Positions 9,354-40,000 of a stretch of 40,000 nucleotides of DNA are shown in pieces. The number at the start of each line of letters is the position of its first letter. The stretch's first letter is position 1. Below the pieces are notes generated by a model. The model saw only the letters and a program-made list of their open reading frames with translations. It made no database searches and was not told the DNA's origin. Source of the DNA: Hyphomicrobiales bacterium (GTDB taxonomy: Bacteria > Pseudomonadota > Alphaproteobacteria > Rhizobiales > Aestuariivirgaceae); contig JBBRLH010000011.1 in the NCBI GenBank assembly GCA_038231475.1, positions 42,634 through 82,633 of the forward strand, read 5' to 3'. The translations under genes were made by a program, and so were the position numbers.

Positions 9354-9707
9354 AGTGCAAACTCCCATTTCAAAATCAAATGACAGCCGTGCGACGTGCG
9401 GTCCACGCGATGGAAACGTGGATAGCCGCGTCAGCTTACTGACTGTTCGCCTTGGTTTGATCGGGGATCCCAATCGCGCTTAGGGCAAGAAAGTGGTGCC
9501 TCTCAGTGTCACTGACCTTTGGAGGGCCAGCAGAGACCAAAAAACCTTCACCGTCGTTGCTTTGGGGAGACCTTGCGGCACGTGCGACTTTGGGCAAGGC
9601 CGCATATGATGGATTCTTGTGTCATTTTCAAGAATTTTCTCGGGCGCGGCCGAAGTTTTTTGATAACAATTCCTTAATGGGTCCAACGCTGCCGAAAGGT
9701 TGGTTTG
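9354..9707 (-). promoter_or_regulatory. long structured 5' leader / promoter region of the decarboxylase gene (candidate speF-type leader)
   Basis: 354-bp noncoding gap upstream of an alphaproteobacterial ornithine decarboxylase. Minus-strand hairpins include CCACGtttccatcgCGTGG and GTCAGtaagCTGAC. A possible TTGAAA-17-CATATG promoter is present. Assignment to the speF leader family comes from context only. Confidence 0.35.
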
Positions 9708-12809: not shown

Positions 12810-13607
12810 ATGACTGGATTGATGAGCGGCAAGCGCGGCCTCGTAATGGGCGTTGCCAATGACCATTCGATTGCCTGGGGCATCGCGCAGGCGCTTCATG
12901 CTCAAGGGGCTGAACTCGCCTTCACCTATCAGGGCGAGGCCTTTGGGAAACGCGTGCAGCCGCTGGCTGCGTCTGTCGGCTCTGACATTCTGATCCCCTG
13001 TGATGTTGAAGACATCGCGACGGTCGATGCCGTTTTTGACACGCTCAAACAAAAATGGGGCACGATTGATTTTGTGGTTCATGCCATTGCGTTCTCTGAC
13101 AAGAACGAACTCAAGGGCAAGTTCGCCGATACGAGCCGCGAGAATTTCGTGAAGACCATGGTGATCTCGGCTTTTTCCTTTGTGGAAATCACCAAGCGCG
13201 CCGCGGCGTTGATGCCCAAGGGCGGCTCGATCATTACCTTGACCTATGGCGGCTCAACCCGCGTCATGCCGAACTATAATGTGATGGGTGTCGCAAAGGC
13301 TGCGCTTGAATCTTCAGTGCGCTATCTTGCCGGCGACTATGGCCCGCAAGGCATTCGCGTGAATGCAATCTCCGCTGGCCCGATGCGGACATTGGCCGGA
13401 GCTGGCATTGGTGATGCGCGCGCCATGTTCAACTATCAGGCCGAACATGCGCCCTTGCGCCGGACGATCACACTCGAAGAAGTGGGCGGCGCTGGATTGT
13501 ATTTGCTCTCGCCCTTGTCTGGCGGTGTAACCGGTGAAATCCACTATGTGGATTCAGGCTACAATATCATTTCCATGCCGCGCCCAGAGGATATCAGCAA
13601 ATCCTGA
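12810..13607 (+). CDS. fabI: enoyl-ACP reductase (NADH)
   Basis: 265 aa from ATG 12810 (MTGLMSGKRGLVMGVANDHSIAWGIA). Completes the fabA-fabB-fabI arrangement. Confidence 0.95.
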   Translation: MTGLMSGKRGLVMGVANDHSIAWGIAQALHAQGAELAFTYQGEAFGKRVQPLAASVGSDILIPCDVEDIATVDAVFDTLKQKWGTIDFVVHAIAFSDKNELKGKFADTSRENFVKTMVISAFSFVEITKRAAALMPKGGSIITLTYGGSTRVMPNYNVMGVAKAALESSVRYLAGDYGPQGIRVNAISAGPMRTLAGAGIGDARAMFNYQAEHAPLRRTITLEEVGGAGLYLLSPLSGGVTGEIHYVDSGYNIISMPRPEDISKS

Positions 13608-14424
13608 CGCGAATGTCAGCGGGGTGCCTTTCATCGGATCTGGCAAAGCTCCGGAATTCCTGCATCGTCTCCTCAATGGACAGGGCATGATCGTTGGCAG
13701 ATGATCTCAAGAATACGCTATGCATCTCGCCTTGCGGACCAACGTCAACACGAGCGAAGAGAAGTTGTGCCTTGACGGCCTCTCGAAATTTGAAGATCGA
13801 CGTTGTCACAATCGGAGCATCTTCTCCGCTATGGTCGACATAAGAAAACAGCGTGGCACCAGCCTTCAGCGCGCTCCGCGCCTCTAAAAAAGAATTTGCC
13901 CCTTTCAGAACCACTTTGGGTGGTGTGTTGAACCGATAGAATTCAATGTCCTGCCGCTTGAAGTCACCCCACATCATCACCGAAGAGCGCAAATTTGATA
14001 AGTCCATTGCAGCGTAGAGTGCCAATTCGCCTTGGCCATGTTCAACAACCACAACACTCGGCTGGCTTTGCAGCAGGGCAACCTGATCAGGCCTGAGCGG
14101 CACGACCTCTGCTGTGTAATTTCTGAAAAGCCATCTGAAATAATAACGGAACTCGTAATGTGAAACTCTGTGCGCCGAGATTTCATACAGGGGCTTCTTG
14201 TCAAACAAGCGCAGGCCATTCATGCTGATCCAAGCCCATGCCAAACGAAAAAGCTGTCGCTCCGAAAGTTTCCAATTTTTCATCAGAAACATGACCAGTC
14301 TAGGATTTCGCAGATAGAAAATGGCGGGTTCGGGATATCGCCGAACAAAAGCGTGAAAACAATTGAGCACAGCAAACATAGCTGAGCGGCCTCCCACTTT
14401 GAAATTCACCGCAAGCCCCGACAC
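13594..14424 (-). CDS. hypothetical protein (lower-GC islet), no confidently recognised domain
   Basis: 276-aa ORF, the only long ORF in this stretch. Convergent with fabI and overlapping it by 14 nt. The start is ambiguous (alternatives M16 and M45). Confidence 0.5.
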   Translation of the reverse strand: MSGLAVNFKVGGRSAMFAVLNCFHAFVRRYPEPAIFYLRNPRLVMFLMKNWKLSERQLFRLAWAWISMNGLRLFDKKPLYEISAHRVSHYEFRYYFRWLFRNYTAEVVPLRPDQVALLQSQPSVVVVEHGQGELALYAAMDLSNLRSSVMMWGDFKRQDIEFYRFNTPPKVVLKGANSFLEARSALKAGATLFSYVDHSGEDAPIVTTSIFKFREAVKAQLLFARVDVGPQGEMHSVFLRSSANDHALSIEETMQEFRSFARSDERHPADIRVRIC

Positions 14425-14608
14425 TTTAACTGTTTGACCGCAGGCCTGAGAGTTTCAACTGACGAAGGCCTCCATTCTCATATTTCGAACATTGTGCTAT
14501 GTTGTCAAGCCATGATGAGAATCCTTTGGGGGCACGATCCTGAGAACTGTTGAAAGCGCTTGGGCGACGAAAGAGATCATACTGTCTTCGGACTTTCGCT
14601 CTTATTCC

Positions 14609-15475
14609 ATGGCGGACCAATACCGACAGTTGCAAGCCCACACGGGGTATGATTTTTCAGCCGCGATTAAACTTCTAGAACACTTGCCCGTGTTTATGGA
14701 TGGTGATCATCACATGCGGGTCCGCAAGGCGATGGCGAGGCAAATTGCAGGCAGCCAGAAATGCCAGTTCTCTGCCGCTGTGGAAAAGCTGGATGATTTG
14801 ATTGCAACCAAACTGTTACCAGCAACGAAAATCGACTTGGTTGCCGATTTTGCTGGCCCCTTGTGGTGGGCTGTTTCCAGTTCGATTGTGCTGCGGTCTC
14901 CCGCCACGGTAAGACTGGTTGATGATATCCCCGGCCTGTTTAATCCCATCCTGTCACTCTCCAAGCGCCTGGACATCTCGAAGCGCATCGACGCCGTTCT
15001 GCGGCTCGCTGGCGAAGATGCGGAAGAGGAGTTGATTCTCATGGGCATTGCCACGCTTGGCGCGCGGCCGTTTGCTGGCTCCATAAGTCTATCGTTGTAC
15101 GAGATTATTCAGAAAAATGCGGGAAAGCAGTTTTCAGATATCGCTTGGCCGGAGATTTTCCCCGCCACCTCGCTGCGTTTTGTCGATCGTATATGTTTGA
15201 ACCCGGTGACGATCGGGGACAACTCATTCGAGGCTGGTGAATGGGTACGCTGCTTTGCGCAACGTGGCGATTATACGCGTGAGGAAAACAACGCCGCCCT
15301 GTTTGGATTTGGTGTCCATTCCTGTCTTGGAAAATCCATCTCGGAGCGCGTGTGGAAATTGGTGACTGAAAAGCTTTCGCAATTGCCCCTCAGTGCCACG
15401 CCTTTGGATTTGGTCATAAGTCTCCACACAGATCCATTCTACATGGCGCAATCGGCGTACGTGCAATTAATCTAG
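14609..15475 (+). CDS. short cytochrome P450-like protein (lacks ~100 N-terminal residues of canonical P450s)
   Basis: Heme-thiolate loop FGFGVHSCLGKSIS near the C-terminus. A preceding RF..R / ...IGD..F..G..V region is laid out as in P450s. There is a degenerate I-helix (LMGIATLG). Only 288 aa, with stops upstream. Confidence 0.65.
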   Translation: MADQYRQLQAHTGYDFSAAIKLLEHLPVFMDGDHHMRVRKAMARQIAGSQKCQFSAAVEKLDDLIATKLLPATKIDLVADFAGPLWWAVSSSIVLRSPATVRLVDDIPGLFNPILSLSKRLDISKRIDAVLRLAGEDAEEELILMGIATLGARPFAGSISLSLYEIIQKNAGKQFSDIAWPEIFPATSLRFVDRICLNPVTIGDNSFEAGEWVRCFAQRGDYTREENNAALFGFGVHSCLGKSISERVWKLVTEKLSQLPLSATPLDLVISLHTDPFYMAQSAYVQLI

Positions 15476-17165: not shown

Positions 17166-18298
17166 TGTCTCTGTTGTTTTCTCCGTTTCAAATGCGTGAT
17201 GTCACGTTGCGCAACCGGGTCATCGTTGCGCCGATGTGCCAGTATTCGGCAAAGCATGGCGTGGCCAATGACTGGCATTTTGTCCATCTCGGCCGCTTTG
17301 CCCTGGGTGGCTTTGGCCTGGTAATGGTCGAGGCCACAGGCGTTTCGCCTGAGGGGCGGATTTCCTATGCCGATATGGGCTTGTGGAATGATGAGCAGGA
17401 AAAAGCCCTGTCGCGCATTGCGGGCTTTCTCAAATCGCAAGGCGCCACACCCGCCATCCAGATTGCCCATGCCGGTCGCAAGGCTTCAACTTCGGTGGCG
17501 TGGATCAACAGCGCCACATTGACGGACGCCGAAAAAGACAAACTCGGGTTTGAGCACTGGAAGCCCGTTGCCCCTTCCGCCCTCGCCCATTCTGCAGCAC
17601 CTGATTTTCAAGTGCCCACGACGCTCGACAAAGCAGGCATCCAGAAAGTCGTTGCCGATTTTGCAACCTCCTTCAAGCGCGCCGACCGCGCCGGATTCGA
17701 AGTCGCTGAAATCCATGCCGCGCATGGTTATTTGCTGAACCAATTCCTCTCCAGTTTTTCCAACACCCGCACTGATGAATATGGCGGCAGCCTGCAGAAT
17801 CGGATGCGCCTTGTCCTCGAAGTGGCGGAAGCGGCGCGGGCCGCTTGGCCCAAATCCAAGCCGCTCTGGGCGCGTGTCTCCGTAGTTGATGGCAAGGATG
17901 GCTGGACCGTCGAAGACAGCTTGGCCCTCGTGCCGGAACTGAAAGCGCGCGGCGTTGATGTCATCCATTGCACCACAGGTGGCTTCGACGGCACGTCGGT
18001 GAAGCCTGGCCCGCATTACCAAGTGCCAATGGCCGCGGCCCTGCGCAAGTCTGGCCTTCCCACCGTGGCCGTGGGCCTCATTCAAGACCCTCACGCTGCT
18101 GAGGCTGTTTTGCAGAAGAGCGAAGCTGATCTCATCGCCCTGGCCCGCGGCGCCTTGGAAGACCCGAACTGGGCAGTCCATGCGCATCATGTGCTGGATG
18201 AAGGTGACGAGGCTTACAAGCTCTGGCCGAAACAGGCGGCGGCAAGACTGCGCGATAAGGACCGTACGCTGGCGATCAGGGGATTTGCGAAGGCATAA
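17165..18298 (+). CDS. NADH:flavin oxidoreductase, Old Yellow Enzyme family (YqjM/NamA-like)
   Basis: MSLLFSPFQMRDVTLRNRVIVAPMCQYS, HAAHGYLLNQFLS. ATG 17165 overlaps the upstream stop (TAATG). Confidence 0.9.
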   Translation: MSLLFSPFQMRDVTLRNRVIVAPMCQYSAKHGVANDWHFVHLGRFALGGFGLVMVEATGVSPEGRISYADMGLWNDEQEKALSRIAGFLKSQGATPAIQIAHAGRKASTSVAWINSATLTDAEKDKLGFEHWKPVAPSALAHSAAPDFQVPTTLDKAGIQKVVADFATSFKRADRAGFEVAEIHAAHGYLLNQFLSSFSNTRTDEYGGSLQNRMRLVLEVAEAARAAWPKSKPLWARVSVVDGKDGWTVEDSLALVPELKARGVDVIHCTTGGFDGTSVKPGPHYQVPMAAALRKSGLPTVAVGLIQDPHAAEAVLQKSEADLIALARGALEDPNWAVHAHHVLDEGDEAYKLWPKQAAARLRDKDRTLAIRGFAKA

Positions 18299-18299
18299 G

Positions 18300-19238
18300 A
18301 TGCCAAACCTGCTTACTATCGCTAACGAGCCTCGCTCATACCCTAGCCCAAAGCTCTGTATATATTGCGGCTCAGTTTCAGGGGCACTCAGCGATGAACA
18401 CATTTTGGCCCACGGGTTGGCAGGAGATTCACTGATATTCAAAAATGCAAGTTGCCCCAAATGTGCGAAAGCAACAGAGTCGTTTGAAACCGTGTGTCTA
18501 AGACACCTTTGGTGGCCCTTTCGAACCAAGATAGGGGCTCCAAATAGTGGGAAACAAACACCAGAAACCTTTTCCCTCAAGCGTATGAAAGTCACAAGCT
18601 ATGACAAAGGGAGGGATGAAATAACTTATGACCAACTCGGAATGGAAGATCTCACCCCGGAAGAATATCCGTTATTCTTTCAAACTTTTGACTTTCCCGA
18701 ACCAGGTATTATTGCGAACAGAGTGTCTTCAGAAAATGTTGAATATAGAATTTGGTGCAAGATAGATGACTCAGAATTCAAGAAATCCAAAGCCCGAGAA
18801 GGAGAAGGTTTTCGGTTAGGTCCCGGCAAGCCAGAGGCTGTCTGCAAAATACTTGCCAAGATTGCACATGGCTATGCGGTTGCAGAAATTGGATTTGGAA
18901 ATTTTGAACCGTTGCTAGCAGAATATATTTGCGGCAGGCAGCTTGATAGACTCCAGTTCATCGGCGGCTTGGGTTTCAAACCCAAGCTCACGACCGCCCT
19001 GCATAAACTTTCGCTGAAACAGCAAACTATGAATGGGGTCAACTACGTTGTTGTCGACATCCGTCTATTTGCGTGCATAGAAACTCCATCATATCGCGTC
19101 ATTGTCGGAAAACTCGATCTTACTCCACATAACCGAGTTCAAATAAAACCCAGGAATTTTCGAGTCGAAATTTGTGGAAATTTGCCGTTTCCATATGCGA
19201 AGGCTCTAGGAGGCATTGCTCAAGGGGGCTGGAGCTAG
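18300..19238 (+). CDS. hypothetical protein with N-terminal HNH/zinc-ribbon-like motif (low-GC singleton)
   Basis: 312 aa from ATG 18300. CIYCGSVSGALSDEHILAHGLAG....CPKC resembles CxxCG...EH(I/V)...LGG...CxxC of HNH-type nucleases. The rest is unrecognised. Sampled line is about 38% GC. Confidence 0.55.
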   Translation: MPNLLTIANEPRSYPSPKLCIYCGSVSGALSDEHILAHGLAGDSLIFKNASCPKCAKATESFETVCLRHLWWPFRTKIGAPNSGKQTPETFSLKRMKVTSYDKGRDEITYDQLGMEDLTPEEYPLFFQTFDFPEPGIIANRVSSENVEYRIWCKIDDSEFKKSKAREGEGFRLGPGKPEAVCKILAKIAHGYAVAEIGFGNFEPLLAEYICGRQLDRLQFIGGLGFKPKLTTALHKLSLKQQTMNGVNYVVVDIRLFACIETPSYRVIVGKLDLTPHNRVQIKPRNFRVEICGNLPFPYAKALGGIAQGGWS

Positions 19239-19257
19239 AGACAAGTGTGCTCGGCCT

Positions 19258-20562
19258 TTACAAAATAAACTTGCTTAGATCCGTGTTCTTGGCCAATTCG
19301 CCGACATGCTGGTTCACATAGGCTGCGTCGATGTTCACCGTCTCGCCAGTCCGGTCGGTGGCGGTGAAGCTTACATCATCAAGAACGCGCTCCATGATAG
19401 TTTGCAAGCGGCGCGCGCCGATGTTTTCAACGGATGCGTTGATCTCGGCGGCGAGCTTGGCGATGGCGACCACGCCATCATCGGTGAATTCAAGCGCAAC
19501 ACCTTCGGTCTCAAGCAGCGCGCGATATTGCTTGATGAGGCTGGTCTCGGGCTCGGTCAAAATGCGGCGGAATTCTTCCTGTCCCAGCGCTTTCAATTCC
19601 ACGCGAATGGGAAGGCGGCCCTGAAGCTCCGGCAGCAAGTCTGAAGGCTTCGCCACATGAAATGCGCCCGACGCGATAAAGAGAATATGATCGGTCTTCA
19701 CCGGGCCATGCTTGGTTGAAACTGTCGTGCCTTCAATCAGTGGAAGCAAATCACGCTGCACACCTTCGCGGCTGACATCGGCACCACCGCGGCCTTCGCG
19801 CGATGCGATCTTGTCGATTTCATCGAGAAATACAATGCCATTGTTTTCAACTATTTCAATGGCTTCTGCGATGATCTTCTCCTGATCTAGGAGCTTTTCG
19901 CTCTCTTCATTCAGAAGAATTTTCTGGGCCTGCTCAACACTCACCTTGCGCGGCTTGGTGCGATTACCAAAGGCCTTGCCCATCATGTCGGAGAGGTTGA
20001 TGACGGAGGCTGAACCTCCCGGCATTCCCGGAATGTCAAAGGCGGGTAAGCCGCCTGTATCCGCAACCTGAATTTCAATTTCCTTGGTTGAAAGTTCGCC
20101 GGCGCGCAATTTTTTACGGAACACGTCTTGCGTTGACTCCGACGCGTTTGCACCGACCAAAGCTTCAACCACGCGGACTTCCGCATTGAGTTCAGCTTGC
20201 GCTTCCACTTCCTTGCGGCGTTGCGACTTCACCATGCCGATGCCCGCTTCCAAAAGGTCACGCACGATCTGGTCAACGTCGCGACCAACGTATCCCACTT
20301 CAGTAAATTTCGTCGCTTCAACTTTCAGGAATGGCGCATTGGCGAGTTTGGCAAGACGTCGCGCGATTTCGGTTTTGCCCACACCCGTGGGGCCTATCAT
20401 CAAGATATTTTTCGGAACCACGTCTTCGCGCATCTGGCCTTTGAGTTGTTGCCTGCGCCAGCGGTTGCGCAAAGCAATGGCCACGGCGCGCTTGGCGTCA
20501 TGCTGGCCAATGATGAAACGATCGAGTTCAGAAACGATTTCGCGGGGAGAGAAGTTGGTCAT
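19258..20562 (-). CDS. hslU: ATP-dependent protease ATPase subunit HslU
   Basis: 434 aa with [21 protein letters not shown] and Walker [16 protein letters not shown]. Confidence 0.98.
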
Positions 20563-30241: not shown

Positions 30242-30417
30242 CTCGAAAATCCCCTTCAGGGCGACCCCGAAACGGTCCAACCCCCATAATTACAGTGATT
30301 GGCAGGTTACATAGAATTTAAACCGCCCGATTCAAAGGGTTTTTGCAAAGCCACAATGGCGGGATTGAGGCAGATGGCGTTGATAGGACTTTACTATTTT
30401 AAATAGGAAAATAACCC

Positions 30418-30446
30418 TTGACACCGTGCGGGCGAGCGGCTATAGG
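30418..30446 (+). promoter_or_regulatory. sigma70-like promoter motif with no obvious plus-strand gene
   Basis: TTGACA (30418-30423), a 17-nt spacer, then TATAGG (30441-30446). It sits at the junction between the conserved backbone and the AT-rich island. Sequence motif only. Confidence 0.3.
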
Positions 30447-30561
30447 GGTATAGTGATATCTCGTAGAGTTCCGATTTATCAAGTTTGTTGTCATTGGGAT
30501 TTTGATTGAGTGCATGCTTATGCATGAAAGATTTCTATCAATGATCAATGGTGTTTTCGCG

Positions 30562-31674
30562 TCAATTTGATCTGGATAGTTCAATCATTTTGTTGCTCAA
30601 AAATGGTCGGTAAAAAGTTACCGCAGCGCTATATGGCTTCAATCTATTCACCGAGCTTTTCAAATAGCACGCACTATATTTTGCATTGTAGGTAGCCAGG
30701 TTGCAGGACTGATTTATTTGACACGCATTTTGACAGTCGCCTTGGGAAATGCCTCTGGTAGGCATATTGGGAAGATCATCTCCTGGCGCATCAAATCCCA
30801 CAACACTCAAAAGTCTTTGACTAATGTCTGTTGTTGGAACGTCGGTTCCTATAATTTCGGTTTCTGATACTGGGTTTTTATCTTGAGCTTCTGCGATGGA
30901 GGTTTGAATATCAGTTTGGGGCGCTGCTCCAGATGTAAGTGGCACTTCAACAATTTTTTCATCTGAATTACCGGTCTGAACAGGTGGCGGCGTGAACGGA
31001 GCAACACTCACTTGATACGATTTACCGTCCAGCCATGGGCATTTATTGGCTAAATTCTCTATGTCACTACTAGACAAACCTATATCTGAAACAAAATTTG
31101 GATCAAAATCAGGCGTGGTTTGTCCCGATAGAACTGAACTCCGATTGCCCAGAATAATTTGCGCTGAAAGTTTTCCTTTTGCACCTTGGAAATAGCACCA
31201 AGCGCTTTGCCATTGTCCCTTTGCCTGATCTTCCTGTGTTGCAAAAGCATGGCCAGCGGTTACGTCCCAAGACTTTCCACCAGCAAACACGCTTGTATTC
31301 TTAAATATTGTAAAATTAGTTGTGACGTAATCAGACTTGGTATTTTCGGCTTTGGTTGGTGTCGTATCCAACGTCGTTTTGGAATTCGTAACTGGAACAG
31401 GTGCCGGCGGCTCTATAGAAGGGGAATAATCCTGTTGGGATATCATCGGGTGATCTGTCGTATTAATTAAACGAATGGCAAATGCCGCTGCGACAATAAC
31501 CAATGCAATTGCGGCGGCTCTTCCCAACCAGTTCGACCGGCTTATGGCACTAGTCATCACAGGATAAGACGGGGCGCCGATAGCAGGTGCCAAAGTCAAA
31601 AATTTAGCATCGTACCTTCGAATTATTTGTGCCAGCGCTTCTTCAAGTGCTTGGGTGTTGTGCCTTGTCTCCAC
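30562..31674 (-). CDS. membrane-anchored protein with C-terminal PAN/Apple-like Cys domain
   Basis: 370 aa. Single TM (AAAIALVIVAAAFAIRL). C-terminal GDCQNACQINQSCNLATYNAKYSACYLKS matches the C..C....C......CxLK spacing of PAN/Apple (PAN_4-like). AT-rich. Overlaps the upstream gene by 32 nt; an alternative start is at 31557. Confidence 0.6.
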   Translation of the reverse strand: METRHNTQALEEALAQIIRRYDAKFLTLAPAIGAPSYPVMTSAISRSNWLGRAAAIALVIVAAAFAIRLINTTDHPMISQQDYSPSIEPPAPVPVTNSKTTLDTTPTKAENTKSDYVTTNFTIFKNTSVFAGGKSWDVTAGHAFATQEDQAKGQWQSAWCYFQGAKGKLSAQIILGNRSSVLSGQTTPDFDPNFVSDIGLSSSDIENLANKCPWLDGKSYQVSVAPFTPPPVQTGNSDEKIVEVPLTSGAAPQTDIQTSIAEAQDKNPVSETEIIGTDVPTTDISQRLLSVVGFDAPGDDLPNMPTRGISQGDCQNACQINQSCNLATYNAKYSACYLKSSVNRLKPYSAAVTFYRPFLSNKMIELSRSN

Positions 31675-33298
31675 GCCTGCGACCCTTCAGTGATATTTTT
31701 ACCTGCTCAGCAATGTCACTCGGCAAAGCAGCATCCAAAGATTTAAAAAGTTCGTCCGGATTATCTGTAAGGAGAGGAATGTAAAGAATCTCCTTGATGA
31801 CCTTCTCCACCGGAACCTCTTTTTCCACAGTAAGGGTTCGAACTCTTTTCCACCTTCGACCTACGACATAGCTGCGAAAGAGCCTAGAAATCCCCCCTTG
31901 TTTTTGAACGGTTGAGGGCGACAAACCAATTTTCTGCAATCCCAATGCAACAATTGCACACATTGGGCCAGCCAAGGCAGCGAGTGCGGCGAGTGACCCA
32001 AACCAAATTAGACCAATTTTTGATGCCGATTCTATTTTCACATCCTCAGCATTTTGCCCAAATACCCATCCAGCCAGTCTTTGAACTTGATCTTTTCTTG
32101 CAAGGACTATTCGCTTGCTCTCCGTTTCTTCAATTTGCTTATCAAGAGCGAACAACTTGTCGTTATTCTCATTTATTGAGTTGGACCGAGAAGTTTCTAA
32201 ACTCTGAGCATCACCCATAAGCTGGCGAGCTTTGTCAATTTGGGTCGCCCATTTATTGTCGGAATCACGCAATTGAGCCACAAGTTCTTTGCGCCGTGCT
32301 TCCGCCTCCCCGCGTTGACTCGTATTACTGTTAGAAAGATTGGCGCGAATGGAATCAAGTTGATCCCGTTTTTGCGAAATTTCCAGATCAATTGCATCCA
32401 CTTTGGATTTGAAATCGGCGTAGATTGCGGGAACGGGGTTTTTGAGTGCAGCTAACTCCTGGGACCACTGAGCCTTTTGACTTGTGTCTGCACCTTTGAG
32501 CCTGTCTACATAGCTATCGCGTTGGCTGGTGAATAGTTTCGATTGCTCTTCCACCTTTTGATTTTGTTCACTGACGAGGGCCTGTCGTTTCTCGTCTAAA
32601 GCCTTTAAACTGTCGCGAAGCTGTGCTCCCTCAGGTGTAAGCACGACCCCGCCTTCCAAATCTTTTTCTACTTTGGATATTTTACTTTCAATAGATTGAT
32701 GATCCTGCTCAGCCAATTTTGAAAGCTTATCAATATTGTCTTGCGAGTCGGAAAGAGCACTGTGGCCCTGTAAGGTCGCGATCTCATTCGCAATCCTTGC
32801 CCGATCACGTTGCAGATCACCTTCACTTTTCTGAAGTTCTTTAAACCTCAACTCTCTTAGAGTTGTTGATCTTTCAAGACCCATGAATACGGTTTCGAAA
32901 GTAATGCCTGCAAGCAAAACTAAAAATATGGCTAGTATAGGTTTCCATCTCCATTTCACCGAAAATAACAACGTCGCAATTGGAATCTTTGTGAGTTCAG
33001 CCAACGCCACCATAAAGAATGGCGCGCTCGCAAGAATAAGATCGCTGCGATCTGCACTTTCGCTGTTTTCAAATGCTTGCAACCCTAAAACAATGCCGGT
33101 CGTAAGGCCTATCGAAGCCGCGATAATTTCGAGCGCCCACGCACAGCGATAGGTCCAGCGACCGTAAGAGGCCAATTTTGCATTAAAAGTATCAGATGGT
33201 CGGGTTTTTCCGCCGCTTAGCACTGAAGATTGTAAATCAGTGTTGCCGTCCGAATTATGACTTGCGGTAGATGTTGCTTGGTTATTGTTAAAGCCCAT
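31643..33298 (-). CDS. multi-pass membrane protein with ~300-aa central coiled coil (unknown function)
   Basis: Start set at ATG 33298 (GGGGAAG RBS); the track start is 33403. Three N-terminal TM segments, a long heptad-rich Q/E/K/D/S region, one further TM (IGLIWFGSLAALAALAGPMCAIVALGL) and a basic C-terminal tail. Confidence 0.6.
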   Translation of the reverse strand: MGFNNNQATSTASHNSDGNTDLQSSVLSGGKTRPSDTFNAKLASYGRWTYRCAWALEIIAASIGLTTGIVLGLQAFENSESADRSDLILASAPFFMVALAELTKIPIATLLFSVKWRWKPILAIFLVLLAGITFETVFMGLERSTTLRELRFKELQKSEGDLQRDRARIANEIATLQGHSALSDSQDNIDKLSKLAEQDHQSIESKISKVEKDLEGGVVLTPEGAQLRDSLKALDEKRQALVSEQNQKVEEQSKLFTSQRDSYVDRLKGADTSQKAQWSQELAALKNPVPAIYADFKSKVDAIDLEISQKRDQLDSIRANLSNSNTSQRGEAEARRKELVAQLRDSDNKWATQIDKARQLMGDAQSLETSRSNSINENNDKLFALDKQIEETESKRIVLARKDQVQRLAGWVFGQNAEDVKIESASKIGLIWFGSLAALAALAGPMCAIVALGLQKIGLSPSTVQKQGGISRLFRSYVVGRRWKRVRTLTVEKEVPVEKVIKEILYIPLLTDNPDELFKSLDAALPSDIAEQVKISLKGRRRGDKAQHPST

Positions 33299-33387
33299 TT
33301 TTCTTCCCCGAAACAATCTAACAGCTTTGTTACCATAGGCAATAGACTGTATAAAAACCGACGAGCAGGAAGCCTTAAGGGGATTTC

Positions 33388-33693
33388 GTGATAGTGATGA
33401 CATGGAAAATGTGGCGTTATACTTCCGTAACAGCCTTGATGCTGACGTGCACGGCCATAATTTTCGAAACCCCTCAAGCTTCGGCTTTCACACAAGCGGA
33501 AATTGCACAGCGAATTATCAACGATAGTTTATCTACCTATCCTGGCAATTGCCCCTGTCCCTATAACAGAGACCGAGCTGGCCATTCATGTGGAAAAAGG
33601 AGCGCTTATTCTAAACCAGGTGGATACTCGCCAATATGTTTTGCAAGCGATGTTACTGAGGAAATGATCCAAAATTGGATTCATAGTCATTGA
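33388..33693 (+). CDS. small secreted Cys-rich protein
   Basis: 101 aa. Signal peptide ending QASA. Mature part contains GNCPCPYNRDRAGHSCGKRSAYSKPGGYSPICF. Divergent from the coiled-coil gene. Confidence 0.5.
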   Translation: MIVMTWKMWRYTSVTALMLTCTAIIFETPQASAFTQAEIAQRIINDSLSTYPGNCPCPYNRDRAGHSCGKRSAYSKPGGYSPICFASDVTEEMIQNWIHSH

Positions 33694-33833
33694 AGTGGAA
33701 TCGCGAGAACATGAGTGAATAAATAGGACTCGACAGGTCAATGGATAACTTATATATATTCCTATATACGTTATTTAATCCTTCGGAGACTAATATGCGA
33801 AATCAAACTGGCTTAAGCATAAAATGGAGGAAA

Positions 33834-33944
33834 ATGGAGGTCAGTGCTAGCGGAGTTCCAGCGCTTTTAACCGTGGTGATAATATCTCTGTGTATCGTGG
33901 CAGGCTTAGCTATCACTCATGTATTTGGATGCGTGTTTATCTAA
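33834..33944 (+). CDS. possible 36-aa hydrophobic peptide
   Basis: ATG 33834 is preceded by GGAGGA. MEVSASGVPALLTVVIISLCIVAGLAITHVFGCVFI is a single TM. The RBS-ATG lies in a perfect 10-bp tandem duplication, AAAATGGAGG x2 (33821-33840). Weak call. Confidence 0.3.
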   Translation: MEVSASGVPALLTVVIISLCIVAGLAITHVFGCVFI

Positions 33945-34109
33945 TCTGATTTTTTTTGATTTTAAGTTTGAACACCACGAAATTACAATGCATTTGGAAA
34001 TTTTGGAAATTTCAAACCCTCTCGATTTTCGACTTTTCTGTGAATTGAGTGCAAGAAAATTTGGCGATGAATTATTGTTGTAAAATGACAAGCGGATTTA
34101 GTTCTATAT

Positions 34110-35162
34110 TTAGTCGTGCGCAATCACTGCACATATAGCCGTGACAATTTTCCTAGCCAATTGTGGGTTCAAACGACAAAAACCCTCATCGGTCACCACA
34201 AAATCAGTTACTGAAAATGTTTCTTTGAAGATCATTTTCAGTATTTGACCATCAACAATCGGCCGAAATGGCTCCATGCGGTCAAGTACGAAAGCATCGC
34301 GGTATTTTCGCTTTCGATGAAATATTCCAATTGTTGGATCGTAGCCTTCAGCAATAACTTGAAGTTTGATTTGTGAATGAAGCACCGCGTAGGCGTAATT
34401 CAACATCGCATTAAAAGGGTGCCGTGCGTTGACGTTGCCTTGGGCAATTGCCGACCGCCTGCCGCCGATATATTTCCAGTCTACCGGGATTAAATCGCGC
34501 TGCTTTAATTTCCAATGAATTGGAATTCTTTGCCAAGCCTCAAAATATTTTGCGGCACTTGCACCCTCCAAACCAAGTAATTCATTGGTCGAAAGTAATT
34601 TCGGACTTTTTAATTTGGTTATGGAGTTTCCGAGAAAATCAATTGCGATTTGCGCCTCATATTTTTCCGAAAACATTTTAAGCGTCGAAATTGAATTCTT
34701 GAATTTTAAAATGAGTAATTTCCGAATTTCAATTTGTGAATTACCCATTTCCAATTGTTTTTGGACCAGCTTTGCATCTGCTGAATAATTCATATTGGCA
34801 ACACATATTACATTTCCCTGCCAATCAATTTGAATAAGGGGTATATTTCTCTCACCAAGCCATTGCAAAACATCGAGAGAAATTGACCCTGACGCGTCGA
34901 AAATGATTATTCGGTTGGGTAAATGTGGATCCCCGCGAAAAAATCGAAATTCCTCGCGTTCTTGGGGATAATGAGTAAATCCATTTCGGATAAATAACGT
35001 CCCGCGATCAATTTGGAACCTGGCCCCATGACCGCAAATAATCAGTGGTCTTTTATCCCGCCTTTTAATTCGGCCTCTATGAGATAGCGATTCTTCGGGT
35101 TTTCCGAGCCAATATTCGGAACGTTCTGCCCAATCTGCAGATGAAACAGACCCATATTCCAT
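34110..35162 (-). CDS. cas1: Cas1 family endonuclease/integrase, stand-alone (putative casposase)
   Basis: 350 aa. LLGLEGASAAKYF (Glu), RRSAIAQGNVNARHPFNAMLNYAYAVL, GYDPTIGIFHRKRKYRDAFVLDRMEPFRPIVD (His, Asp/Glu) form the canonical Cas1 alpha-helical catalytic core. The N-terminal PLIICGHGARFQIDRGTLFIRNG matches the Cas1 beta-domain start. Confidence 0.85.
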   Translation of the reverse strand: MEYGSVSSADWAERSEYWLGKPEESLSHRGRIKRRDKRPLIICGHGARFQIDRGTLFIRNGFTHYPQEREEFRFFRGDPHLPNRIIIFDASGSISLDVLQWLGERNIPLIQIDWQGNVICVANMNYSADAKLVQKQLEMGNSQIEIRKLLILKFKNSISTLKMFSEKYEAQIAIDFLGNSITKLKSPKLLSTNELLGLEGASAAKYFEAWQRIPIHWKLKQRDLIPVDWKYIGGRRSAIAQGNVNARHPFNAMLNYAYAVLHSQIKLQVIAEGYDPTIGIFHRKRKYRDAFVLDRMEPFRPIVDGQILKMIFKETFSVTDFVVTDEGFCRLNPQLARKIVTAICAVIAHD

Positions 35163-35239
35163 TGCGAAATATCCCAGTCAAATTGAGTGTTAAATCTATC
35201 ACAAATGTCAGATTTAGTCCTTAGAATTTAACGGGATAT

Positions 35240-36223
35240 CTAGGTTATTTGACGCGTTTTTCCAGCGCCAACATTTTTTTGTGGCCATTCCTTGCGCTGA
35301 ATAGCGCACACTAAAGCAACGAAATTAGCCACCTTAAAATTTGGCTGCAGCAGCCCTTTGTAAGCTTCAACAAAAAGACCAGGATCAAACCCAGAAGGTA
35401 ATTGGCATTTTGGAATTGCCAGCAATTCTTTAAATGACCGAAGAGCAGCAACCATTTTCCAGAATTCAGTTCTTGCGGTTTTAAAGTGAATTGACTCAGC
35501 GGATTCGAGCGCAAACTGTCCGGAGTTTGTTGTTTCGTCGGCGGGCGCAAAGATGCCTTTGAACAAATTAATCGCAGGGTTTTGTGAAAATTCTCTTGGC
35601 TCTGGAATACCTAAGGCATTTGCCAAGGACTCCGCAAATGACGTCCTAGTTTCGCCTGTCCTCAAAGTGGCAAGCATGTCGAGCCTTTCACGGCCTGAAT
35701 AGGCGAAACCTTCGGGAACCAATCTGCTGTCAACATTTGGAGTCCCATTTTCGAATGCTTTGACCGTTCTGGCACTTGGTTCCGAATTGGCAAGATCAAC
35801 GTTTGAACGGGTATTCATCACTTGAGACGAACTCAACCGCTTCAGAGTCCGCAAGCACGCCCGTCTTAGATCTTTGATATTCACATGCGCGCCGAAGAGC
35901 CAAAGCAGAATTTGCAATTCATCAAAGTATTTTACGCCCTGACTTTTGAAGCGACAAATTCGGCATGCCCGTCTGTAGGCCAAGGCGTCCCAATGGGATC
36001 GAAAACCCTTTCCCCGACCCAAACTAACTTTGATTGGCCCTGGAATGACTCGCTCTTCACACCAATCTCTCACCATACGGTCAGTGACTGTGATCCCGCA
36101 ATTGATCTGAGCCCATTGGATGAGCCGATTGAGAAACTCTTCGTAAGAAAACACCGCAGGTTTCTTCGTTCCGTCCGCGCGATCGCTTTCCAAGTTTAGT
36201 ACTCCCACCATCCATTGCAACAC
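35240..36223 (-). CDS. hypothetical protein (possible N-terminal HTH)
   Basis: 327-aa ORF, the only long ORF in this stretch. FSYEEFLNRLIQWAQINCGITVTDRMVRDWCEERVIPGP could be a helix-turn-helix. No recognised family. Confidence 0.5.
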   Translation of the reverse strand: MLQWMVGVLNLESDRADGTKKPAVFSYEEFLNRLIQWAQINCGITVTDRMVRDWCEERVIPGPIKVSLGRGKGFRSHWDALAYRRACRICRFKSQGVKYFDELQILLWLFGAHVNIKDLRRACLRTLKRLSSSQVMNTRSNVDLANSEPSARTVKAFENGTPNVDSRLVPEGFAYSGRERLDMLATLRTGETRTSFAESLANALGIPEPREFSQNPAINLFKGIFAPADETTNSGQFALESAESIHFKTARTEFWKMVAALRSFKELLAIPKCQLPSGFDPGLFVEAYKGLLQPNFKVANFVALVCAIQRKEWPQKNVGAGKTRQIT

Positions 36224-36268
36224 GCAGGAAAGGTTTGGCCCATTGGACTCTTAATAAGGAGAACCAAT

Positions 36269-36844
36269 GTGACCAAATCAAAGCGCAACTACAAGGACGA
36301 ATATGCCCGCCGCCTAGCGAGGGCGTTCGGTAAGAATCTAAGCCGTGCCGAGGCCCGTGGCCACGGCAAACAAGCCCTGAAGCCGAAGTCGGGGAAAGCC
36401 TTCAGTTCCGACCAGCGGTTTCTGGAAAAGGGCGTCAAGCTCATCAAGTCGGGTTCGAGCCTTACGGGGGCGGCCAAAGAGCTCCATGTGGCACCCGAGC
36501 GCCTGCGCAATTACCTGGAAGCGTCTGGCGTTGCTAAAAAGGTCGGGGCTCGATGGCGGATTGGCCCGGACGACCGCGCCAGGCAAATGCTGGTCTTCTC
36601 AGAACATCGAGCCCTCAAGGTGAAGGTTGAGCCTGAAGCTGCTTCATTGATCGGCAGTTACATGAATGATGTCGGTCTGTTTTTGAACAGCAATAATCCC
36701 TCATTTCTGAAGGCCTGGAAAGATGAACGCTTCGTCGATTTCAAAGGCCGCAAGCACCCCTTCGAAACTGATCCCAATAGTTTGTACCGGCTCAACCAGG
36801 CTGGACGGAACAGCTTCGATGAAATCTACCGCATCATAACATAA
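36269..36844 (+). CDS. hypothetical HTH-like DNA-binding protein
   Basis: GTG 36269 is preceded by AGGAGA; the track start at 36215 would overlap the divergent gene. Basic N-terminus with an LSRAEARGHG motif. SLTGAAKELHVAPERLRNYL is HTH-like. Confidence 0.5.
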   Translation: MTKSKRNYKDEYARRLARAFGKNLSRAEARGHGKQALKPKSGKAFSSDQRFLEKGVKLIKSGSSLTGAAKELHVAPERLRNYLEASGVAKKVGARWRIGPDDRARQMLVFSEHRALKVKVEPEAASLIGSYMNDVGLFLNSNNPSFLKAWKDERFVDFKGRKHPFETDPNSLYRLNQAGRNSFDEIYRIIT

Positions 36845-36856
36845 GGAAACTTGACT

Positions 36857-37219
36857 ATGGACACTACTAAACTTGCAAGAGAAGCCCGCGAACGTGCGGC
36901 CAAGCGAAGACTAGGATCCGATAGCCCGTGCTGCGCCACATGCGGCTGCAGTGATTGGAAATGCCTTGAGGCACACCATATCGCAGGGCGTGCCTATGAT
37001 CCAACTACCGACATTGAGTGTCGTAACTGCCATCGCATCTTGAGCGATTGGCAAAAGGATCACCCCAAACAAACAATCAATCCCCCGAGCTTCGAAGAAG
37101 GGCTCGCTCATTTCCTGCTGGGCATGGCGGACCTGTTTGAGCTGCTAGTCGGAAAACTCCGCGAGTTCGCTGACAAACTACTTGAAAAACTGCAACCCAC
37201 TTTGGAGCCACAATCATGA
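36857..37219 (+). CDS. HNH endonuclease
   Basis: CCATCGCSDWKCLEAHHIAGRAYDPTTDIECRNCHRIL is the CxxC...HH...CxxCH HNH zinc-finger nuclease pattern. Its stop overlaps the polB start (ATGA). Confidence 0.75.
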   Translation: MDTTKLAREARERAAKRRLGSDSPCCATCGCSDWKCLEAHHIAGRAYDPTTDIECRNCHRILSDWQKDHPKQTINPPSFEEGLAHFLLGMADLFELLVGKLREFADKLLEKLQPTLEPQS

Positions 37220-39864
37220 CGAACTCAAATCTTGACCTGCCTCACCCTGACTACTTGTCAATCGCGATCAGAACCTATGCTGATCATCGCCAACAAAAGC
37301 CGTTCAGCGCACCACCTTACATTTCGTCCAAATATTCTTTGATTTTTGACTGTGAGACCACCACCGACGAAACCCAGTCCTTGCGGTTTGGAGCTTTCCA
37401 GATTCGGGAGAATGGGGAACTTATTGAGCAGGGTGTATTTTATGACGACCAAACTTTGGATGGGAACGAGTTGGAATTGCTCAAAACCTATGCAGCAACA
37501 TATGGCGTTGCCCATCTCCCCGTAGATGTGTTCGTCGAGAACTACCTCTACAAATTTGGATATGACCTGGGTGCTGCCATTGTTGGATTTAATCTGCCCT
37601 TTGATCTCTCCAGATTAGCCAAAGACTGGGGCATTGCACGAAGGTCAATGAAAGGAGGTTTCACCTTCCCACTTTCGGACGACAAGCGGCGACCCAATAT
37701 TGCCATCAAGCACCTCAGCAGCCGGATGTCCCTGATGAGGTTTGTTGGCCCTTTCGTGCAGAGCACAGGGCGCGGCATGCGAAGGCGTAAAGCTCTTGTC
37801 CCGTTTGAAAGAGGCACATTCATTGACGTGCGCACCCTTGCTGCAGCGTTGCTCAGTAAGTCATTTAGCTTGGGCAAGCTTTCTGAACATCTGCAGGTCG
37901 AGCATCAAAAGCTTGAGACCGATGAGCATGGAGGTCCATTGACTGAGGATTACATTCGCTATGCCGTGCAGGATGTCCAAACAACCTGGGAGTGTTTTGT
38001 TGCACTTCGCAAGAAATATGACGAACTGAAACTCTCGACTCCCATCCACAAGATCATGAGTGAGGCCAGTCTAGGGAAAGCCTATCTTTCCCAAATGGGC
38101 ATTAAGCCCTGGCGGCAATGCCAGCCTGATTTTCCGCCTGAACTTATCGGCAAGATCTTCAGTACATACTATGGTGGACGATCCGAAGTGCATATCCGCC
38201 GGAAAATCCAGCGTGTCATGTATTGCGATTTTCTCTCCATGTACCCGACGGTTTGCACCAAAATGGGTTTGTGGAAGTTTGTCATTGCCGAAGGCATGAC
38301 CTGGCGGGATGGCACTGACGAGATTCAGCAGCTCATCGATGGGATAAATGTTGATGATTTCCGAAATCCCGAGACCTGGAAGAGATTGACGGCCATTGTT
38401 CGCCTCAAACCTGAGGCCAATCTCTTTCCGGTTCGTGCCGAATATGTTGAAGGTGCTGGGACATCCATCGGGCTGAATCATCTCTCATCGGAGAGGCCAC
38501 TGTATTTCACGCTGGCCGATTGCGTTGCCTCAAAGCTGTTGACAGGGAAAACGCCGCAAATTGAAGAAGCCATCATTTTCGAGGCTGGCCCCCCTCAAGT
38601 TGGCTTGCAACCTGTCGAGATTGGAGGCCAAGCCGATTGCCTGGTTGACCCTTACAATGATGATTTCTATAAAAAGCTCATAGAGCTGCGCCAGACCATC
38701 AAGGCCAGGATGAAAAGGGCTTCGTCTGTCGAAGCCTGGCAACTTGATGCAGCACAATTGGCCCTTAAGATTGCTGCCAATGCCACAAGCTATGGCATCT
38801 TTGTTGAAATCAATGTGCGTGATGAACTTAAGAATAAAGAGGTCACCTGCTACGGGCCTGAAGGTTCTTTCACTGCCAAGACCCGCAAAACCGAGCAGCC
38901 GGGCCGCTACTTTCACCCACTCCTTGCTACACTCATCACCGGGGCAGCCAGGTTGCTTCTGGCTTTGGTAGAATACAAGGTCAAGGATGCTGGCTTAGAC
39001 TGGGCCCTTTGTGACACAGACAGCATGGCCATTGCCCGACCTGAGGGCATGGAAGAAGCAGAGTTTATTCGAAAGGCCAAAACCATTTGCACATGGTTCG
39101 ATGATTTGAACCCGTATCAAGGTGGCGGTCCCTTGCTAAAGATAGAAGACGACAATTATTCGCTGGATGATCCAAAGTCTCTAGCCGAATTATATTGCCT
39201 TGCAGTTTCATCCAAGCGCTATGTGTTGTTCAATACTGTTGATGGCAAGCCAGTCATTCGCAAGGTATCTGCTCATGGTTTGGGACACCTCCTCGAACCA
39301 TATAATGAGAAGAATCCTGCGAAGAACCTTGCCAAACCCAAGGTTGATCTCAAGGAGGCCAGGCTTTGGCATCATGACCTGTGGTATCAAATCATCATCG
39401 CGGAACTTGAGGGACACGGTGCGCAAATTGACTTGACCTGGCATGCCGCATTGAAAAAGCCAGCAATGAGCCAATACAGAGCATCAAGCCCTGATCTGCT
39501 CGCCTGGTTTAAGTCATGCAATGCGGGCAAGAAATACCGAGACGCGGTCAAACCCTTCAACTTCCTTCTGACCCAGATCGCAGGCAGTGATGTCTTGAAG
39601 AGCAGCGTTAAAGCGGTGGCTCCATATGACAAGGATCATGATCGCGCCATTCAGAAGGCCTTTGATCGAATAACGGGGATGAAAATCAACCGCAGGGATC
39701 TGCAGAGCTTTGCCCAGGCACTCATGCAATATCATATACATCCAGAGGCAAAGTTTCATGGTGGGGATTTTGTGGACCAAGGCCCGACCTCCTGCCGCCA
39801 CGTGCATGCCATTGGCATACAGCACATTGGAAAAGAGGCGGACCGGCTGGAGGAGAGATGGTAA
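37216..39864 (+). CDS. polB: family B DNA polymerase with 3'-5' exonuclease domain
   Basis: 882 aa. ExoI FDCETTT (D45/E47), ExoII FNLPFD (aa 125-130), ExoIII YAVQD (249-253), YxGG YYGG (318-321), motif A DFLSMYP (338-344), motif B KIAANATSYG (518-527), motif C CDTDS (599-603), KxY SKRY (666-669). All appear in canonical order. Confidence 0.9.
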   Translation: MTNSNLDLPHPDYLSIAIRTYADHRQQKPFSAPPYISSKYSLIFDCETTTDETQSLRFGAFQIRENGELIEQGVFYDDQTLDGNELELLKTYAATYGVAHLPVDVFVENYLYKFGYDLGAAIVGFNLPFDLSRLAKDWGIARRSMKGGFTFPLSDDKRRPNIAIKHLSSRMSLMRFVGPFVQSTGRGMRRRKALVPFERGTFIDVRTLAAALLSKSFSLGKLSEHLQVEHQKLETDEHGGPLTEDYIRYAVQDVQTTWECFVALRKKYDELKLSTPIHKIMSEASLGKAYLSQMGIKPWRQCQPDFPPELIGKIFSTYYGGRSEVHIRRKIQRVMYCDFLSMYPTVCTKMGLWKFVIAEGMTWRDGTDEIQQLIDGINVDDFRNPETWKRLTAIVRLKPEANLFPVRAEYVEGAGTSIGLNHLSSERPLYFTLADCVASKLLTGKTPQIEEAIIFEAGPPQVGLQPVEIGGQADCLVDPYNDDFYKKLIELRQTIKARMKRASSVEAWQLDAAQLALKIAANATSYGIFVEINVRDELKNKEVTCYGPEGSFTAKTRKTEQPGRYFHPLLATLITGAARLLLALVEYKVKDAGLDWALCDTDSMAIARPEGMEEAEFIRKAKTICTWFDDLNPYQGGGPLLKIEDDNYSLDDPKSLAELYCLAVSSKRYVLFNTVDGKPVIRKVSAHGLGHLLEPYNEKNPAKNLAKPKVDLKEARLWHHDLWYQIIIAELEGHGAQIDLTWHAALKKPAMSQYRASSPDLLAWFKSCNAGKKYRDAVKPFNFLLTQIAGSDVLKSSVKAVAPYDKDHDRAIQKAFDRITGMKINRRDLQSFAQALMQYHIHPEAKFHGGDFVDQGPTSCRHVHAIGIQHIGKEADRLEERW

Positions 39865-39898
39865 TCCCCCCATTTTTAATGGGACTTGATTGTAGAAC

Positions 39899-40000
39899 TC
39901 ACGCGGCCAATTGTTGTTTCAGTTTCTGAGCGGGTGTTATGCCGCCAAGCCCCATGTTGGGACGGTCGTTGTTGTAAGTCCATAGCCAGTCTGTGGCGTA
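39899..40000 (-). CDS. DDE (rve) transposase, C-terminal 33 codons; IS3-family-like; 5' part lies beyond the window
   Basis: Not in the ORF track. Manual minus-strand translation gives YATDWLWTYNNDRPNMGLGGITPAQKLKQQLAA*, the W..YN..RP...LGG.TP end of rve-domain transposases. A candidate IS terminus TG... lies at 39887-39891. Confidence 0.8.
   Translation of the reverse strand, partial: YATDWLWTYNNDRPNMGLGGITPAQKLKQQLAA

Follow-up and report, generated by a model that had tools for sequence, protein, structure and literature searches.

Descriptions of family 3 casposons in Alphaproteobacteria date from 2014 and 2016 and concern Henriciella, Hyphomonas and Citromicrobium, and a study published in 2023 worked with 54 bona fide casposon Cas1 references from the four families. 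Among the described systems, the closest to the locus analyzed here is HenMar-C1 of Henriciella marina DSM 19595 (Krupovic et al. 2014, PMC4046053), whose gene table reads cargo, Cas1, MerR-like helix-turn-helix (HTH) protein, HTH protein, HNH nuclease with a C4 zinc motif, B-family DNA polymerase (PolB) and cargo, and whose Cas1 carries no additional fused domains. In this work, a stretch of 40,000 nucleotides from a Hyphomicrobiales bacterium (assembly GCA_038231475.1, contig JBBRLH010000011.1, forward-strand positions 42,634 to 82,633), hereafter the window, is compared with HenMar-C1 and other known systems. Very probably, an integrated casposon of family 3 and of the HenMar-C1 type begins with a left terminal inverted repeat (TIR) at position 30445 and extends past the end of the window, which contains its left and central part. 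The insertion site is upstream of murA, and the copy is a new member of the lineage known from H. marina since 2014, not a new system and not a domesticated module.

HenMar-C1 and the window element share a Cas1 without fused domains, cargo on both sides of the core, an alphaproteobacterial host and an intergenic insertion. The two differ in their cargo, which comprises a PAN-domain protein and proteins without assigned function in the window and a Cas4-helicase fusion, a C5 methylase and a Ser/Thr kinase in HenMar-C1, in their termini (GGGGTATAG and GGGGATAAGGG, respectively) and in polB, which in the window copy, unlike in HenMar-C1, is cut by an IS3-family insertion sequence (IS). NitAL212-C1 of Nitrosomonas sp. 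AL212, likewise in family 3, shares the core gene set and has a terminus starting with GGGGTAT, a parasitic IS and, like most relatives of the window element, a C-terminal HTH region in PolB; its Cas1, which is 27% identical to that of the window, is extended by a zinc finger at the N-terminus and an HTH domain at the C-terminus. The casposons of family 2 (AciBoo-C1 and the Methanosarcina mazei casposon) share Cas1, a PolB of the CDTDS group, HNH and two HTH proteins with the window element and have similar termini (GGGATATAGG...), target-site duplications (TSDs) of 14-15 bp and tandem arrays. Integration by family 2 casposases has been shown in vitro, and translocation in vivo has been shown for M. 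mazei. These elements differ in that they reside in archaeal hosts, encode a Cas1 with a C-terminal HTH domain that is 26-30% identical to the window Cas1, and target tRNA 3' ends or leader-like sites.

Two further systems invite comparison. Pipolins are likewise self-synthesizing bacterial elements with a B-family polymerase that are found in Alphaproteobacteria and often bear cargo, but they employ tyrosine recombinases, are bounded by attachment-site (att) direct repeats, contain a KTRG motif in place of KxY in the polymerase and lack Cas1. The Cas1-Cas2 adaptation module of CRISPR systems shares the Cas1 fold, the catalytic Glu, His, Asp and Glu/Asp residues and the staggered, target-duplicating mode of integration, and the palindromic targets of many relatives of the window element recall CRISPR repeats. 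In contrast to this module, the window contains no Cas2, array or effector, and the inserted DNA is a whole element rather than a spacer.

A five-gene core of the HenMar-C1 type

The cas1 gene (34110-35162, minus strand) encodes a protein of 350 amino acids (aa) without extra domains and with intact catalytic residues, which matches the generic Cas1 profiles (Pfam PF01867, E=7.8e-40; TIGR00287, 114.6 bits). In an alignment of 39 sequences of the family, the equivalents of E141, H208, D218 and D221 of Escherichia coli Cas1 are E199, H282, D294 and E297, all of them invariant except for the nearly invariant H282. The profile matches and the alignment bear out the original prediction, made from the DNA of the window without database searches, of a 350-aa Cas1 with its catalytic Glu/His/Asp-Glu positions present. 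Compared with the Cas1 alignment in the supplement of the first casposon paper (PMC4046053), the window protein finds its best BLASTP match in HenMar-C1 Cas1 (41% identity, 222 bits), followed by NitAL212-C1 (141 bits), family 2 (98-113 bits) and family 1 (67 bits), with all CRISPR Cas1 proteins below 59 bits. In neighbor-joining analysis, the window Cas1 family and HenMar-C1 form a clade in all 200 bootstrap replicates, with HenMar-C1 nested within it, and this clade joins the other family 3 sequences in 140 of the 200. The phylogeny, which the prediction had named as a check, places the protein with the family 3 casposases and outside the sampled CRISPR clades, and none of the subtype-specific CRISPR Cas1 hidden Markov models (HMMs) reaches its cut-off on it.

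The relatives of this protein are numerous: a protein search returned 1462 Cas1 relatives at E<1e-5, and at least 589 loci, mostly alphaproteobacterial, were confirmed in species-representative genomes. The set of related loci used below comprises 84 loci, namely 80 genome loci kept from these at least 589 and four loci on contigs. Within this set, tblastn detects PolB, HNH and the HTH protein here termed p209 beside cas1 wherever the contig allows, and PolB is present in 37 of the 40 loci in which cas1 has 7 kb or more of flank on each side. The orientation is divergent, as in the window, in 57 of 61 related loci and colinear in the remaining four.

Three genes separate cas1 from polB. The first, p327 (35240-36223, minus strand; likely start 36193, giving 317 aa), is a fast-evolving gene whose product has an N-terminal MerR-like HTH; jackhmmer links it to the open reading frame (ORF) at the corresponding site of 29 of 35 loci, and therefore the core consists of five genes, namely cas1, two HTH genes of which the first is MerR-like, HNH and polB. 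The MerR_1 profile is matched by two of 19 p327 homologues, a weak HTH signal. The second, p209 (36215-36844, plus strand; likely start 36269, giving 191 aa), encodes a conserved HTH protein that was found in 65 related loci at 30-48% identity and at 75% in locus L092, with weak matches to HTH_28 and HTH_17 among its homologues. The third encodes an HNH nuclease of 122 aa with a C4 zinc motif (36851-37219, plus strand; likely start 36857). Its homologues share the invariant residues C28, C31, H43, C57 and H61 in a CxxC...HH...CxNCH pattern with nearly invariant flanking residues, nine of 24 of them match PF01844, and the window ORF itself matches phrog_2255 (HNH, E=0.0047). Its stop overlaps the polB start by 4 bp, as had been pointed out before. 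The likelier starts given for these three genes are those called on an independent contig. HenMar-C1 has a MerR-like HTH gene in the position of p327 and an HTH gene in that of p209, and the order in its published gene table (Table S2, PMC4046053) is identical to the core order in the window.

The polB gene (37216-39864, plus strand) is an ORF of 882 aa that scores above the gathering thresholds of PF03175 (DNA_pol_B_2, 32.3 bits) and PF00136 (DNA_pol_B, 25 bits); a phmmer search against PDB gave no match. The motifs ExoI (FDCET), ExoII (NLPFD), ExoIII (YAVQDV), motif A (DFLSMYP), KxY (SKRY) and motif C (CDTDS) follow one another in the expected order. The CDTDS form of motif C occurs in 55 of 56 PolBs of the family and also in the window protein, which is assigned to the casposon CDTDS type by this motif; the PolB_CDTDS cluster was named after it (Kazlauskas et al. 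2020), and its member from A. boonei is casposon-encoded (PMC7544198).

The end of this ORF is not that of a native polymerase. In most relatives, PolB runs 125-160 aa past the last residue of the window protein and includes two HTH-like segments there; the conserved C-terminal region opens with an EYG segment and closes near a conserved DPSNL motif. From about position 39855 on, the window matches 367 plasmid records in which the features beneath the match are annotated as IS3 family transposase, and an IS copy of Rhizobium binae aligns with the window from 39855, starting at GAGATGGTAATCC. Given this alignment, the polB ORF ends in IS sequence, which supplies its final two codons and its stop; native polB sequence stops near 39854, and the protein is truncated at about residue 880. 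The IS3-family element, of which one end lies in the window (39855-40000, minus strand, with the 3' end of the transposase gene at 39899-40000 and a translated C-terminus of YNNDRPNMGLGGITP), enters polB at about 39855-39860 and cuts off the C-terminal HTH region of roughly 125-160 aa. The original prediction of an 882-aa PolB holds for the motifs and their order, but the ORF is not complete, and the IS3 insertion that truncates it had been missed. The remainder of polB and the right terminus must be located beyond the window, and the window copy is probably crippled and no longer autonomous because the IS has removed the C-terminal HTH region of PolB.

Termini of the relatives and the left end of the window element

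Many of the relatives are bounded by inverted repeats of 33-500 bp. Paired termini of the form GGGGTATAG...CTATACCCC delimit 22 of them, with element lengths of 7.4-19.5 kb, and 21 of these 22 lie between perfect direct repeats, 12-17 bp long and in most cases 14-15 bp. Four loci (L036:10900-10933, L061:8459-8491, L070:609-641 and L075:5256-5289) contain head-to-tail junctions in which CTATACCCC is followed, after 15-16 bp, by GGGGTATAG; these indicate tandem casposon copies that share a single spacer of TSD length. Paired termini, TSDs and tandem junctions are the defining marks of casposons. At the terminus of L092, no recognizable motif was found. The TIR published for HenMar-C1 is 37 bp long (CCCCCTCTCCCGGATCGGGAGGGGATAAGGG...) and is accompanied by a direct repeat of 1 bp (PMC4046053, Fig. 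S2); it looks as if this sequence includes the palindromic target duplication, in which case the true terminus would start at GGGGATAAGGG and the TSD would have the usual length.

In the window, the terminal 12-mer of the family, GGGGTATAGTGA, has a sole exact match in 40 kb, at 30445 and on the strand expected for a cas1-side end. The left TIR (30445-30489, plus strand) reads GGGGTATAGTGATATCTCGTAGAGTTCCGATTT..., and past the 12-mer it agrees with the TIR of L034 at 19 of 33 positions (null mean 13.4, p about 0.0015), a match that is equalled at 0.15% of random window positions. The terminus lies 165 bp beyond the murA start, and the fraction of G+C (GC) falls there from 0.55 to 0.41-0.54. 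The exact 12-mer, the continued similarity of the TIR and the fall in GC together place the beginning of the element at 30445, about 3.7 kb to the left of position 34110, where the original prediction had set the boundary, so that the cargo genes and the true left end had been missed. By analogy with the 14-15 bp TSDs of the relatives, the 15 bp directly outside the left terminus, GGGCGAGCGGCTATA (30430-30444), are a candidate TSD copy. No pair of TIRs came out of an inverted-repeat search in 28-40 kb, since the window stops short of the right end. Past the IS3 element, the right terminus would read ...TCACTATACCCC, and GG(G)CGAGCGGCTATA would be repeated directly after it. The earlier proposal to look for TIRs and a 14-15 bp TSD was therefore productive for the left terminus of the window copy and for the paired TIRs and TSDs of the relatives, but not for the right end of the window copy, which is outside the 40 kb.

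The interval between the terminus and cas1 holds 3.7 kb of lineage-specific left cargo with three genes: a 370-aa protein with a C-terminal PAN/Apple domain (30562-31674, minus strand; PF14295, E=3e-07; PF00024, E=3.7e-07), a 586-aa ORF product (31643-33403, minus strand) with no assigned function and no match in Pfam, PADLOC or the related loci, and a 101-aa Cys-rich protein (33388-33693, plus strand; phrog_27544, E=1.1e-24, a family of unknown function). No homologues of the three genes were found in the 84 related loci, and PADLOC, applied to the cargo and core proteins, returned only Cas1 and a weak DEDDh exonuclease match and no defense cargo. A near-consensus sigma-70 promoter pair (TTGACA, 17 nt, TATAGG; 30412-30440) ends at the left-terminus junction and points into the element; the element genes nearest to it are on the opposite strand.

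Two contigs from SRR19962015, L085 and L001, are 100% identical to window positions 30430-33482 and 33483-39889, respectively, and the first of them, an independent Logan contig, stops exactly at 30430. The assembly of SRR19962015 thus breaks 15 nt outside the terminal GGGG, which is the TSD length of the family, and again at 33482/33483 within the cargo. These breaks could reflect tandem copies, polymorphism of the site or chance, and they are too uncertain to have been used as evidence. Look-ups of PolB and of the PAN-domain protein retrieved two short SRR19962015 contigs only and no sequence beyond the window. For murA, the proteins from two alternative starts were looked up as exact sequences; neither is on record, and no empty site or longer contig was obtained. 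Metagenome scans for the window TIR returned nothing with a 24-mer and three unrelated family termini with a 19-mer.

The mode of action can be proposed from the relatives and from published work on casposases of families 1 and 2, from which terminus binding, staggered integration and replication of the element by its polymerase are extrapolated. The Cas1 homologue would bind the GGGGTATAG termini and join their 3' ends to staggered target positions 14-15 bp apart, and repair of the staggered joins would then give the 14-15 bp duplication. The element's own B-family polymerase would copy the element, and the HNH nuclease and the HTH proteins may assist in end processing and in the recognition of the target or the termini.

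Alternative explanations

The call of a casposon with Cas1 as its putative integrase is supported by the phylogeny, by the synteny and by the TIRs and TSDs of the relatives. The Cas1, PolB, HNH and HTH genes of the original prediction are located where it had put them, and its reading of the locus as a casposon or a derivative of one agrees with the Cas1 phylogeny, the synteny with HenMar-C1 and the relatives' TIRs and TSDs. Several points weigh against this identification. The right TIR and the second TSD copy are beyond the window, which leaves the boundaries and the duplication of the window copy half shown, and no empty site for the element was found by the look-ups and scans. The CRISPR Cas1 sample in the tree is without types I-C to I-F, III and V, which are covered by HMM scores only. 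The HNH and HTH proteins of the window have no significant Pfam match of their own and were assigned via homologues and conserved motifs; the earlier HNH and HTH calls thus find agreement in the family-level HTH signals and in PF01844 matches of homologues, all weak or indirect, but not in the window proteins themselves. Finally, no biochemical test of any family 3 casposase was found in the literature searched, and the window element is read from sequence alone.

A truncated polB and the lack of a visible right end would fit a Cas1-PolB module that has been domesticated, has lost transposition and works for the host, for instance in defense or repair. This explanation can also draw on a few relatives with cas1 but without polB (L002, L047 and L054) and on one relative with genes for a ThsB-type TIR domain (here a protein domain, not an inverted repeat) and a SLATT domain, a defense-like cargo, directly after cas1 (L003:6844-8180). 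It is nevertheless improbable. The relatives have TIRs, perfect TSDs, variable cargo and insertion sites and tandem copies, all marks of active mobility; the truncation of polB is due to the IS insertion and is not a conserved architecture; and none of the 84 related loci adjoins murA. Among the traits that the original prediction listed as unusual, a Cas1 of short length, a pair of genes that separates cas1 from HNH and the location of cas1 and polB on opposite strands are indeed present, but each of them is the norm in the HenMar-C1 lineage of family 3. With the traits normal for the lineage, neither of the suggestions built on them, an undescribed variant or a domesticated module, is supported.

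The casposon identification also has to be weighed against a pipolin or another PolB element, with a polymerase of the piPolB or the protein-primed type, located beside cas1 by chance. Pipolins occur in Alphaproteobacteria (PMC5695915), and the best Pfam match of the window polymerase is to the organellar/viral type PF03175. The polymerase, however, has KxY (SKRY) and CDTDS, and no KTRG was seen in it (signatures from PMC5695915 and PMC7544198), no tyrosine recombinase family is matched among the ORFs of the element, and the termini of the relatives are inverted repeats with 14-15 bp TSDs and not att direct repeats, all of which makes such an origin highly unlikely.

Equally slim are the chances that the cas1 half and the polB half derive from two different adjacent elements, a reading for which base composition is one argument. 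The host region has a GC of 0.554 and the element 0.41-0.54, with 0.413 in cas1 and 0.501 in polB, a gap that none of 51 relatives matches. PolB and p209, moreover, show below-average similarity in the loci nearest to the window in Cas1 (L003, L004 and L090), and these loci are not the nearest in PolB. Against this stand the conserved and published five-gene order, the lack of an internal terminus motif between the two halves and L092, which is close to the window for Cas1 (70%), p327 (52%) and p209 (75%) together and shares the AT-rich cas1. The difference in base composition noted in the original prediction is real but is not peculiar to the window, since the GC asymmetry is also seen in L092 and L090, the two nearest relatives checked. 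The GC gap and the incongruent similarities had prompted the idea that parts of two elements were joined recently, which L092 weakens. The pattern suggests that sub-lineages exchanged the cas1 side long ago; because L092 is close to the window on both sides of the module, any recombination would be old and within one element.

That the gene is a CRISPR-associated cas1, with an array and other cas genes just past the window and with polB adjacent by chance, is hardly credible, as the good matches to generic Cas1 models and a CRISPR-like array a few kb from polB in the related locus L035 are outweighed by the nesting of the window Cas1 among casposases with no subtype model at cut-off, by the lack of cas2 or an array in the 40 kb, by the tie of polB to cas1 across loci and by the absence of arrays from 84 of the 85 sequences scanned (the 84 related loci and the window). 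Tandem Repeats Finder detected no repeat-spacer array in the 40 kb, and no cas2 or other cas gene is found among the Pfam-assigned ORFs of at least 90 aa in 1-30280 or among the ORFs of the element; on this count, the array scan and the Pfam survey concur with the earlier claim that the 40 kb contain no array, cas2 or effector gene. In L035, the only sequence with an array among those scanned, the CRISPR-like array has a period of 60 nt, is followed by ORFs of 109, 320 and 1062 aa (L035:6-4955) and adjoins the polB side of the casposon.

Target sites of the family and the host region

The family-wide patterns of target sites are more interesting than the window copy itself and provide leads on the family, not on that copy. 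Among the 22 reconstructed targets, 13 are strong GC-rich hairpins centered on the duplication, several of them flanked by A and T runs; 13 of the 22 sites fold more than 2 standard deviations better than random 41-mers from the same locus. Palindromic hairpins are seen in L010, L020, L034, L059, L060, L079, L012, L021, L029, L049 and L063. Some of the hairpin targets of relatives, those flanked by A and T runs, resemble bidirectional terminators, and others are CCCTCTCCC...GGGAGAGGG hairpins resembling repetitive extragenic palindromic (REP) elements. Four of the 22 targets lie within GAAC-N7-GAAC, which we take to be the alphaproteobacterial LexA box. One sub-lineage sits in this motif upstream of recA (L040:18717-19916 and L016:15713-16875; also L030, L048, L033 and L027); recA starts about 100 bp (L040) or about 150 bp (L016) downstream of the right terminus, and an intact GAAC-N7-GAAC box remains beside recA after insertion. 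The left flank of the window copy is not a hairpin.

In the literature searched, no description of the size of the lineage or of its target preferences was found. It is conceivable, if rather doubtful at present, that the window element is one member of a very large and largely undescribed HenMar-C1-like radiation whose casposases choose structured or operator DNA, such as hairpins and the recA LexA box, that tandem copies of these elements give rise to repeat-insert-repeat structures, and that the non-palindromic murA site represents a further target class. If this were true, duplicated palindromic targets of 14-15 bp and tandem copies would provide a natural model for the origin of CRISPR repeats, and the preferences for hairpins and for the SOS box of recA would be relevant to the question of how palindromic repeats became targets of Cas1 integrases. 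The related loci include dozens of intact elements with exact termini and TSDs, among them elements of cultured Sphingomonas, Novosphingobium, Microvirga, Brevundimonas and Methylobacterium; Microvirga sp. 2MCAF38 and Novosphingobium sediminicola DSM 27057 are two hosts of intact copies. For the window itself, the outcome is mainly a correction of the annotation to an IS-damaged family 3 casposon with a defined left end.

The Pfam-assigned ORFs of at least 90 aa in 1-30280 are all housekeeping genes (urease, fatty-acid, histidine, hslUV, murA and others), with four ORFs unmatched, and this gene content presumably fits an alphaproteobacterial chromosome. Two stretches of the host region, 13594-15475 and 18298-19258, have a lower GC of about 0.50; they hold two ORFs of 276 and 288 aa without a Pfam match and about 1 kb without an ORF of at least 90 aa. 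A match to 5_ureB_sRNA (136 bits; 2363-2651, plus strand) is located within the region of the urease alpha-subunit gene, on the opposite strand, and may reflect conserved coding sequence. A speF leader RNA (9391-9532, minus strand; 46.9 bits) lies upstream of the ornithine decarboxylase gene.

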